From Escherichia coli 042 (lineage in GTDB: Bacteria > Pseudomonadota > Gammaproteobacteria > Enterobacterales > Enterobacteriaceae), in NCBI RefSeq assembly GCF_000027125.1, contig NC_017626.1: a stretch of DNA of 64,000 nucleotides. One strand, given 5' to 3'. The notes below the pieces were generated by a model. The model searched no databases and was not told the origin of the DNA. It saw only the letters and a program-made list of their open reading frames with translations. Shown here in pieces: positions 47,070 through 49,541 of the stretch (position 1 is its first letter; every line of letters begins with the position of its first letter). The position numbers were made by a program, and so were the translations under genes.

Positions 47070-49541
47070 ATGAGTAAAGTCTTTATTTGCGCCGCTATTC
47101 CTGACGAACTGGCAACAAGGGAAGAAGGCGCTGTGGCTGTAGCCACAGCCATTGAAGCTGGCGACGAACGCCGTGCTCGAGCAAAATTTCACTGGCAATT
47201 CCTGGAACATTATCCGGCTGCTCAGGACTGCGCTTATAAATTTATTGTCTGCGAGGATAAACCTGGCATACCCCGCCCTGCCCTCGATTCATGGGATGCT
47301 GAATATATGCAGGAAAACCGCTGGGATGAGGAGTCTGCTTCTTTTGTCCCGGTTGAGACTGAATCCGATCCGATGAACGTCACTTTTGACAAGCTGGCCC
47401 CTGAAGTACAGAACGCTGTCATGGTTAAGTTCGACACATGTGAAAACATCACCGTTGATATGGTTATTAGCGCACAGGAATTGTTGCAGGAAGACATGGC
47501 AACATTCGACGGACATATCGTTGAAGCGTTGATGAAAATGCCAGAAGTTAACGCCATGTATCCGGAGCTTAAGTTGCACGCCATTGGGTGGGTTAAGCAT
47601 AAATGTATTCCTGGTGCTAAATGGCCCGAAATTCAGGCAGAGATGCGCATCTGGAAAAAACGTCGCGAAGGTGAACGCAAGGAAACCGGAAAATACACGT
47701 CTGTTGTTGATCTCGCCCGCGCCAGAGCCAATCAACAGTACACTGAAAATTCAACAGGAAAAATCAGCCCGGTCATTGCTGCCATTCATCGCGAATACAA
47801 GCAGACATGGAAAACACTGGATGACGAACTGGCCTACGCTCTCTGGCCTAGTGATGTGGATGCCGGAAACATTGACGGCAGCATCCATCGCTGGGCAAAA
47901 AAAGAAGTTATCGACAACGACCGCGAAGACTGGAAGCGTATCTCGGCATCAATGCGCAAACAGCCTGATGCCCTTCGCTACGACCGCCAAACTATTTTTG
48001 GCCTTGTCCGTGAGCGTCCGATCGACATTCACAAAGATCCCGTAGCACTGAACAAATATATCTGCGAATACCTGACGACAAAGGGCGTGTTTGAGAATGA
48101 AGAAACAGACCTGGGCACTGTTGATGTTCTCCAGTCATCAGAAACACAAACTGATGCAGTGGAAACTGAGGTATCTGATATCCCAAAAAATGAAACCGCG
48201 CCGGAAGCTGAACCATCTGTAGAGCGTGAGGGGCCGTTCTATTTCCTCTTCGCAGATAAGGACGGAGAAAAATACGGTCGCGCAAACAAACTCTCTGGTC
48301 TGGATAAGGCACTGGCTGCTGGCGCCACTGAAATCACAAAAGAAGAATATTTTGCCCGAAAAAATGGCACATACACGGGCTTACCGCAAAATGTAGATAC
48401 CGCTGAAGATTCAGAACAACCAGAGCCGATAAAAGTTACCGCTGACGAAGTAAACAAAATTATGCAGGCAGCCAATATCAGCCAGCCTGACGCCGATAAG
48501 TTGCTTGCTGCATCACGTGGTGAATTTGTTGAAGGGATTAGTGACCCGAATGATCCGAAATGGGTTAAGGGGCTCCAGACCCGCGATTCTGTGAACCAGA
48601 ACCAGCATGAATCGGAACGGAACTACCAAAAAGCGGAACAAAACAGTCCAAATGCGTTACAAAACGAGCCAGAAACGAAACAGCCTGAACCAGTAGCGCA
48701 ACAGGAAGTGGAAAAAGTCTGCACCGCCTGCGGTCAGACCGGCGGCGGCAACTGCCCTGATTGTGGCGCGGTGATGGGCGACGCAACATACCAAGAAACA
48801 TTCGATGAAGAGTATCAGGTTGAAGTTCAGGAAGATGATCCGGAGGAAATGGAAGGCGCTGAACATCCACACAAGGAGAACACTGGCGGCAATCAGCATC
48901 ACAATAGCGATAATGAAACTGGCGAGACGGCAGATCACCCAATTAAGGTGAACGGTCATCACGAAATCACATCCACCAGCAGGACGTGTGACCATCTAAT
49001 GATCGACCTTGAAACCATGGGAAAAAATCCTGATGCCCCGATCATCTCAATAGGTGCAATATTTTTCGATCCGCAAACCGGAGATATGGGACCGGAATTT
49101 AGTAAGACTATCGATCTGGAAACTGCTGGCGGAGTCATTGATCGGGACACCATTAAATGGTGGCTTAAGCAATTACGCGAAGCGCAATCTGCCATTATGA
49201 CCGATGAAATCCCGTTAGATGATGCACTGTTACAATTGCGAGAATTTATCGACGAAAACTCCGGTGAATTTTTTGTTCAGGTTTGGGGAAATGGAGCCAA
49301 CTTCGACAACACGATTTTGCGCCGTTCATACGAACGGCAGGGGATCCCCTGCCCGTGGCGTTACTACAACGATCGCGATGTACGCACAATCGTTGAGCTG
49401 GGGAAAGCCATAGACTTCGATGCCAGAACGGCTATTCCATTCGAAGGTGAGCGCCATAATGCACTTGATGACGCCCGTTACCAGGCAAAATACGTTTCAG
49501 TTATCTGGCAAAAACTGATCCCGAGTCAGGCTGATTCTTAA
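47070..49541 (+). CDS. ydfE: YdfE-family prophage protein, full length, with central zinc ribbon and C-terminal DEDDh (DnaQ-like) 3'-5' exonuclease domain
   Basis: ORF 47034..49541; start chosen at [18 protein letters not shown]...; CxxC...CxxC ([16 protein letters not shown]); exonuclease motifs [26 protein letters not shown]. Confidence 0.8.
   Translation: [823 protein letters not shown]

Follow-up and report, generated by a model that had tools for sequence, protein, structure and literature searches.

A ydfE-type prophage gene of Escherichia coli 042 joins a RecE-like scaffold to a predicted DEDDh 3'-5' exonuclease domain

Introduction

RecE of the Rac prophage is the closest described system to the gene reported here. 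Its 5'-3' nuclease domain of the PD-(D/E)XK type is placed at residues 564–866, its N-terminal region (here called the scaffold) has no assigned function, and the full-length protein, scaffold included, specifically boosts linear-linear recombination (review PMC11611040). RecE/RecT and lambda Exo/Bet are exonuclease/annealase (SynExo) pairs of the early-left operon, where they lie promoter-distally and before xis-int. DNA can also be joined in E. coli after resection of the other polarity, since 3'-5' resection by XthA (ExoIII) suffices for RecA- and RecET-independent joining (bioRxiv 10.1101/454074). Here we describe an intact ydfE-type gene in a 64,000-nucleotide (nt) stretch of E. coli 042 (contig NC_017626.1; hereafter the window, meaning this whole stretch). 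Its product appears to be built as RecE is, with the nuclease exchanged for an unrelated domain of the DEDDh 3'-5' exonuclease class, and recT is not next to the gene.

The described relatives of that domain are small proteins. T4 DexA is a standalone phage enzyme of 227 amino acids (aa), EcD/HREX represents DexA-like DEDDh domains from E. coli mobile elements, and Rv2179c, the founder of Pfam family PF16473, is a small standalone bacterial RNase of Mycobacterium tuberculosis. The YdfE family is itself already catalogued, being named in databases and covered by the newer Pfam entries YdfE_N and YdfE_C. In the searchable literature, no description was found of the exchange of nucleases on a RecE scaffold or of a link between the C-terminal class and the annealase, and no experiment on this protein was found. 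The original prediction for this gene, made from the DNA sequence of the window, stated that a function could not be assigned from sequence, which remains true.

Results

An intact ydfE gene with a predicted C-terminal exonuclease domain

The gene and its product are composed of the following elements (AF2, AlphaFold2; pLDDT, predicted local distance difference test; dN/dS, ratio of nonsynonymous to synonymous substitution rates). Residue positions throughout follow the 823-aa numbering.

47070–49541, plus strand: intact ydfE-type coding sequence, 823 aa from ATG, stop codon included
47057–47060, plus strand: Shine-Dalgarno-like GAGG with a 9-nt spacer to the ATG at 47070, as read from the sequence
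47070–47684, plus strand: N-terminal alpha/beta domain, residues 1–205 (AF2 pLDDT >90; dN/dS 0.02–0.12)
47802–48104, plus strand: helical middle domain M1, residues 245–345, homologue of RecE ~278–375 (pLDDT >93)
48222–48374, plus strand: small beta-hairpin/helix domain, residues 385–435 (AF2 pLDDT >90; dN/dS 0.01–0.19 although dS reaches 0.7)
48456–48950, plus strand: RecE-identical stretch, residues 463–627, made of a low-complexity linker, zinc ribbon and acidic tail (BLASTP to RecE; dN/dS 0.4–0.5)
48720–48767, plus strand: Cys4 zinc-ribbon motif, residues 551–566, CxxC...CxxC as read in the translation
48993–49508, plus strand: DEDDh 3'-5' exonuclease domain, residues 642–813 (Pfam PF16473; dN/dS 0.16–0.19 in divergent pairs)
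49005–49022, plus strand: Exo motif I, DLETMG, residues 646–651 (D646, E648), aligned with DexA D7/E9
49293–49319, plus strand: Exo motif II, GANFDNTIL, residues 742–750 (D746), aligned with DexA D119
49455–49487, plus strand: Exo motif III, residues 796–806 (H796-x4-D801), with the H-x4-D spacing of DexA H186/D191

The original prediction described an 835-aa protein. The frame is indeed uninterrupted, and the longest open reading frame (ORF) runs from a TTG at 47034 to 49541 on the plus strand (835 aa); this is the maximal ORF only, and the true product is likely the 823-aa protein, because the GAGG precedes the ATG at 47070 and the close database homologues, like PHROG 2082, are essentially all 823 aa long. 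The PHROG 2082 match covers residues 1–822 of 823. The gene was also recognised correctly as an intact ydfE: K-12 ydfE is 100% identical to it over nt 1–767, where IS2 interrupts the K-12 copy, and the gene of phage PhiR42_1 (E. coli ECOR13) is 100% identical to that of the window. The residue 1–205 domain is the portion that survives in K-12 YdfE, and the newer Pfam entries YdfE_N and YdfE_C probably map within it.

A DnaQ-like 3'-5' exonuclease domain had been foreseen at the C-terminus, and all of the quoted motifs, the zinc ribbon and Exo motifs I–III, are found in the translation. PF16473 (Rv2179c-like 3'-5' exonuclease) matches residues 642–813 with E 6.2e-66 over model positions 2–177 of 177, so that this domain takes up the family hidden Markov model at full length; Pfam also gives a weak match to RNase_T (PF00929). 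Among solved structures, sequence searches pick out T4 DexA alone as a relative (PDB 8KEL/8KEN; E 3.5e-7). In an alignment of 7 diverse domain sequences, D646, E648, D746, H796 and D801 are invariant, and these residues correspond to the DexA catalytic residues D7/E9/D119/H186/D191 (PMC12153337). The two proteins thus share a phage origin, the PF16473 DEDDh subfamily and the catalytic D, E, D, H and D. DexA differs in standing alone and in having extra loops, only ~135 residues can be aligned, and its W152 is replaced by Y in the YdfE-type protein. A Foldseek search with the full-length model placed RNase T, the oligoribonuclease Orn and DnaQ first (probability 1.0) with a poor root-mean-square deviation (rmsd), the domain being modelled at pLDDT 50–78. 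The profile match to PF16473 is by itself strong enough for a DEDDh assignment, and 3'-5' exonuclease activity is a safe inference for the predicted enzymology of the protein.

Two identities were considered for the C-terminal domain and rejected. EcD is not this domain: the EcD primers show a standalone MIDTET...TIPETY protein, and EcD-like ORFs are 35% identical to the domain. EcD has ~190 aa, begins at motif I (MIDTET...) and has no scaffold; the EcD-like ORFs share PHROG 255 with the domain. Membership of a known defence system was set aside as well, since the only PADLOC match is a generic Cas-associated DEDDh model (E 8e-6).

The non-catalytic part resembles RecE

The original prediction missed the likeness of the non-catalytic part to RecE. 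The only NCBIfam match of the protein is the RecE equivalog NF007259, which aligns over model positions 271–600 of 877 (E 1e-83) and scores 281.6 bits, below the whole-protein cut-off of 1269. In a BLASTP comparison with K-12 RecE, residues 262–627 align with RecE 278–592 (E 2e-61, 39% identity overall), and the part that starts with LLAASRGEF and includes the zinc ribbon and acidic tail is ~85% identical to RecE 443–592, the zinc ribbon being nearly the same in both proteins. The acidic linker and zinc ribbon noted at the outset are therefore present and are no novelty of this protein. The BLASTP alignment stops where the PD-(D/E)XK nuclease of RecE starts, and neither BLASTP nor phmmer found similarity between the RecE nuclease portion (601–866) and the YdfE-type protein. 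A profile comparison of the N-terminal part with RecE, which had been suggested as a check, gave a positive result: by hhalign, the N-domain and RecE 1–277 are collinear over 182 columns (probability 80%, E 1.4e-5).

Judged from these alignments, M1 is a clear homologue of RecE ~278–375 and the N-domain a distant homologue of RecE 1–277. Together with the homologous linker, zinc ribbon and acidic tail, this points to an overall architecture that is RecE with the nuclease exchanged, namely homology plus a domain swap, beyond the shared position in an early operon next to xis/int. The exchange concerns unrelated nucleases, PD-(D/E)XK 5'-3' in RecE and DEDDh 3'-5' in the YdfE-type protein. AF2 models three confidently folded units in the non-catalytic part (1–205, 245–345 and 385–435), connected through disordered acidic linkers; residues 439–640 are largely disordered, with pLDDT <50 across most of 499–637.

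Nuclease class correlates with an annealase gene in the loci examined

Loci with the same scaffold differ in what follows the gene. In every DEDDh locus examined (the window, L003/L004, L005, L033, L034/L035, L036, L043, L044 and L045), xis/int come directly next. This order is independent of backbone and integration site, as it is found at the rspB, potC and icd sites and with both Rac-like and Qin-like immunity regions. Among the PD-(D/E)XK forms, a RecT or RecT-like gene comes next in four of the five loci (Rac, L006, L040 and L041), and these relatives are true SynExo exonucleases on the same scaffold.

A tblastn search with five RecT or RecT-position proteins found RecT-like sequence neither in the 64-kb window nor in the DEDDh loci, and no annealase PHROG was found among the early or nin ORFs of this prophage. 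RecT-like sequence was also found in none of the 75 DEDDh-bearing loci from IMG/VR; the 80 loci kept in that scan are all close relatives, which add numbers and not independence. Because an annealase gene is systematically absent, over 6 diverse loci and the 75 from IMG/VR, the DEDDh form is not a SynExo exonuclease. It shares with the SynExo systems the early-left operon niche, promoter-distal and before xis-int, and differs from them in its predicted polarity, which would be the opposite, and in the annealase partner, which was not found in the prophage.

Relatives combine the modules in different ways

A search with residues 1–640 among 1.84 billion representatives returned 247 relatives only. 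The matches in AFDB come from Escherichia, Shigella, Salmonella, Enterobacter, Serratia, Klebsiella and Yersinia. Module mapping covered the 48 representatives that reach 480 aa or more, in which two N-domain types, YdfE-type and RecE-type, were found. No module is shared more widely in the family than M1, and the M2/zinc-ribbon segment is present variably. At least three C-terminal classes occur: DEDDh, RecE-type PD-(D/E)XK, and a ~300-aa domain of PHROG 7838. The protein P0126 ends in a fourth tail of unassigned type. All four combinations of N-domain type and nuclease type are found, and the zinc ribbon is kept in both DEDDh- and PD-(D/E)XK-type relatives.

The third class, labelled 'exonuclease' in PHROG 7838, has the conserved motifs WRxVxRTDPRFTK...GTSINxEYM...KKSLTDAIKKALSxLGFSADV. 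Its members are P0129, P0134, P0135, P0154, P0168, P0187, P0189, P0195, P0210, P0230, P0235, P0258, P0262 and P0268, and the gene at L039:4001–6337, which lies between a lambda-Gam-like gene and a Mu-Gam-like gene. The tail gives only a faint Pfam Rad52_Rad22 signal (E 0.05–0.08 over ~30 residues), and a profile search returned no PDB match for it. The motifs had suggested a Rad52-type annealase, an idea that the PDB and Pfam searches did not bear out and that stands as a lead only; this C-terminal domain may be a fused annealase.

Two further arrangements were seen among the relatives. In P0201 (703 aa), RecE residues 1–528 continue in frame into RecT sequence (GHAYLLPFGNKNEKSGKK); recE and recT were probably joined here by a deletion. 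In L016:5187–6991 (IMG/VR UViG_2671181127_000013), an EcD-like standalone DEDDh exonuclease of 196 aa is followed immediately by a Dam-like methyltransferase whose C-terminal tail bears the YdfE/RecE zinc-ribbon module (pairwise BLASTP E 8e-13). Since this methyltransferase tail carries the same module, the zinc ribbon looks like a portable element on different DNA enzymes. The 61-aa zinc-ribbon segment used as a query returned only short E. coli fragments.

Prevalence, selection and database names

The gene is present at ≥80% coverage in 3536 of 5426 complete E. coli genomes (~65%), in a median of 2 and a maximum of 10 places per genome. It is carried by the plaque-forming or induced phages mEp460, PhiR42_1, HannyBb and Tritos, and the copies include prophages related to Shiga toxin (Stx) phages. 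In pairwise comparisons with mEp460, Evi and an allele from chicken E. coli, dN/dS is 0.01–0.19 in the four folded domains and 0.4–0.8 in the linkers; the folded domains are under purifying selection. The intact frame, these low ratios and the presence in viable phages rule out a pseudogene or decaying remnant. Not every copy is intact, as the orthologue in PPompW prophages of the O26 lineage is annotated as a frameshifted pseudogene (L046:3001–5468, PPompW_EH1846; related PPompW/Stx2a phage records).

Synonymous divergence varies up to ~18-fold among regions of one gene pair (window gene versus L043, L044 and L045). In the DEDDh domain, dS is 0.06 against mEp460 and 1.1 against Evi, and M1 is nearly identical in all. 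Because dS differs to this extent within the same pair, the gene shows intragenic recombination and is a mosaic.

The database names of the family follow its different parts. PHROG 2082 is called 'exonuclease', PGAP uses "3'-5' exonuclease", and NCBI also uses "3'-5' exoribonuclease". The protein P0001, 94% identical, carries precomputed PF27430 (YdfE_N), PF27432 (YdfE_C) and PF16473. Several GenBank phage records of DEDDh-type or N-terminal-fragment genes, and PGAP for the BL21 fragment, use 'exodeoxyribonuclease VIII', the name also given to the identical gene of PhiR42_1. On DEDDh-type genes this label is a misnomer, wrong in mechanism and in polarity, and it has spread from the shared non-catalytic region.

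The gene closes an early-left operon

The window holds a Qin-type lambdoid prophage integrated beside rspB/rspA. The early-left operon starts at the dicA/dicC switch and has the ydfE-type gene at its distal end, and the gene order bears out the position first noted for it, between ydfD-dicB and xis, as that of recE in Rac. Its neighbours are as follows (sRNA, small RNA).

44926–46977, plus strand: upstream part of the early-left unit, with dicA, ydfA/B/C, DicF, dicB and ydfD
44926–45333: dicA, repressor, at the start of the early-left unit
46375–46426, plus strand: DicF antisense sRNA, upstream of dicB (Rfam RF00039, 76.7 bits, full length)
46601–46789: dicB, in the early-left unit
46786–46977: ydfD, in the early-left unit
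49614–49865, plus strand: xis (excisionase), directly after the ydfE-type gene
49885–51180, plus strand: int (integrase), followed by the host genes rspB/rspA

No consensus sigma-70 promoter was found directly upstream of 47070 on the plus strand. The dicA/dicC operon is repressed in lysogens, as is known for K-12 Qin.

Two ORFs elsewhere in the prophage were recorded. A transposase ORF (PHROG 8463) lies in the nin/replication-proximal region at window positions 39365–40678 on the minus strand, so the otherwise complete prophage carries an insertion sequence, as does PhiR42_1. The match of a 118-aa ORF at 42345–42701 on the minus strand to DNA methyltransferase families is confined to their middle part, and the ORF seems truncated.

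Discussion

We tentatively favour, at somewhat less than even confidence, the view that the gene product works on its own as a 3'-5' exonuclease at DNA ends, to which the RecE scaffold delivers it. Induction or infection would switch on the early-left operon repressed by DicA, and the protein would be made. It would degrade DNA from 3' ends in the 3'-5' direction, dependent on Mg2+, and the shared scaffold would bring it to the same DNA structure or partner as RecE. It would work as a single-component end-processing enzyme rather than as one half of a SynExo pair, because DEDDh forms never precede an annealase gene and PD-(D/E)XK forms usually do. In the weakest step, resection of phage or linear DNA ends with reversed polarity might expose 5' tails that anneal at short homologies; alternatively, the protein might simply trim or destroy 3'-ended DNA in lytic development. 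The annealing step is modelled on XthA as an analogy of working only, in which 3'-5' resection of double-stranded DNA (dsDNA) ends yields cohesive 5' tails and joining that needs neither RecA nor RecET. XthA is a host enzyme, and its fold is unrelated to the DEDDh domain.

Several links favour DNA ends as the target. DexA and EcD, the closest relatives with a characterised activity, are DNases. The scaffold is part of a dsDNA-end enzyme, and it is tied to DNA-end handling by the specific boost that full-length RecE gives to linear-linear recombination. The gene sits in the recombination slot of lambdoid early-left operons, and XthA has shown that 3'-5' resection can lead to joining without an annealase in E. 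coli.

Other observations weigh against this view. The DNA substrate is inferred from DexA and EcD only, since Rv2179c, the founding member of the family, is described as an exoribonuclease. AF2 models the C-terminal domain at no better than the pLDDT given above, and the alignment is shallow there. The folded units of the scaffold have no informative structural relatives outside the family in PDB and AFDB, and a literature search for YdfE returned incidental mentions only and nothing functional. The correlation between annealase and C-terminal class rests on few independent lineages, and in the fifth PD-(D/E)XK locus, L042, the recT position is taken by a 271-aa gene of no assigned class and not by a recognisable RecT. 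The protein could also be anti-recombinogenic, removing the 3' tails needed by RecA- or RecT-type recombination. The 271-aa protein of L042 (L042:6565–7377) belongs to PHROG 3657, to which no function is assigned, and has no similarity to RecT-like proteins; it may represent an annealase family not yet recognised.

The main rival to a DNA-end enzyme, which we consider unlikely, is an HREX-type superinfection-exclusion or anti-phage nuclease that degrades incoming T-even DNA of the 5-hydroxymethylcytosine (5hmC) type and spares unmodified host DNA. The gene is prophage-borne and very common, and DicB, encoded in the same operon, reportedly protects against phages. With its distal place in a repressor-controlled early-left operon and no promoter-like site of its own, however, it should be silent in a stable lysogen. 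EcD, an E. coli homologue of DexA, digests T4 DNA and not unmodified dsDNA, and protects cells from T4 (PMC12153337); the standalone EcD-like proteins of PHROG 255 are related to the C-terminal domain at the identity stated above. At the two positions that this paper connects with the behaviour of EcD, the YdfE-type protein differs, with moderate confidence because the alignment is remote: the equivalent of DexA D90, a tetramer contact that is Ala in EcD, is D here and A in the EcD-like ORF of L016, and the equivalent of the 5hmC-stacking W152 is Y here, W in the L016 ORF and Y, C or W across the family. In addition, a role in phage DNA metabolism is suggested by the RecE-type nucleases that occur on the same scaffold with RecT as partner, and PADLOC offers a generic DEDDh match only.

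A counter-defence nuclease is a rather unlikely reading. Such an enzyme would remove 3'-ended nucleic acids early, for example retron multicopy single-stranded DNA (msDNA) or the cDNA of defence reverse transcriptases, or it would blunt ends made by restriction enzymes or RecBCD. Early expression beside the host-takeover genes dicB and DicF suits this role, as do the several paralogous copies per genome and the strong intragenic mosaicism, which fit arms-race genes; the folded domains are nevertheless under strong purifying, not diversifying, selection. RecE, with its homologous scaffold, degrades retron msDNA in vivo and has been discussed as an anti-restriction factor (bioRxiv 10.1101/2020.06.22.160242), an analogy that lends counter-defence some plausibility. 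No linked inhibitor or trigger pair was identified for the YdfE-type gene in this analysis. DEDDh enzymes are not known to open cyclic signalling nucleotides, which also speaks against counter-defence.

It is improbable that the protein is directed at RNA, as a 3'-5' exoribonuclease that trims or degrades host or phage RNAs, possibly including the long transcript of the dicBF operon. Many database names, one from NCBI among them, call the protein an exoribonuclease, the Pfam family takes its name from such an enzyme (Rv2179c of M. tuberculosis), and the operon also encodes the sRNA DicF; among characterised proteins, the closest in sequence are nevertheless the DNases DexA and EcD. The nearest folds are RNase T and oligoribonuclease (Foldseek, poor rmsd), but RNase T also acts on DNA, and the matched PDB entries are RNase T-DNA complexes. 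The shared scaffold, moreover, belongs to the dsDNA-end enzyme RecE. A scavenger that supplies phage replication with nucleotides by completing the breakdown of host DNA fragments, the role of DexA as the only solved relative, would fit early expression but is very improbable, as degradation of the host chromosome is not known from temperate lambdoid phages, a 640-aa RecE-type scaffold would be superfluous for simple scavenging, and standalone ~190-aa versions exist for that purpose.

Beyond the single gene, the DNA-end reading can be extended to the family, in a form that we regard as doubtful. The N-terminal region of RecE and YdfE would be a general delivery scaffold that docks interchangeable DNA-processing domains (PD-(D/E)XK, DEDDh and the ~300-aa faintly Rad52-like domain) onto one target in enterobacterial temperate phages. 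In this docking device, the portable Cys4 zinc-ribbon peptide would serve as one component. The DEDDh version, which E. coli carries most often, would then constitute an undescribed annealase-independent system of reverse-polarity end processing, recombination or counter-defence.

For decades the 560–600 N-terminal residues of RecE have stood without an assigned function, yet full-length RecE enables linear-linear 'direct cloning'. The conservation of the scaffold while the polarity of the nuclease flips and the annealase partner vanishes is a natural experiment: a scaffold kept across the nuclease swap and the annealase loss has a role independent of nuclease polarity and of RecT. As roughly two-thirds of complete E. 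coli genomes have the DEDDh form, frequently as multiple copies, most strains carry its putative early function. Should the protein promote annealase-free joining, recombineering or cloning may gain a new tool; should it instead be a nuclease of exclusion or counter-defence, it would be an addition to the catalogue of the arms race between phage and host.

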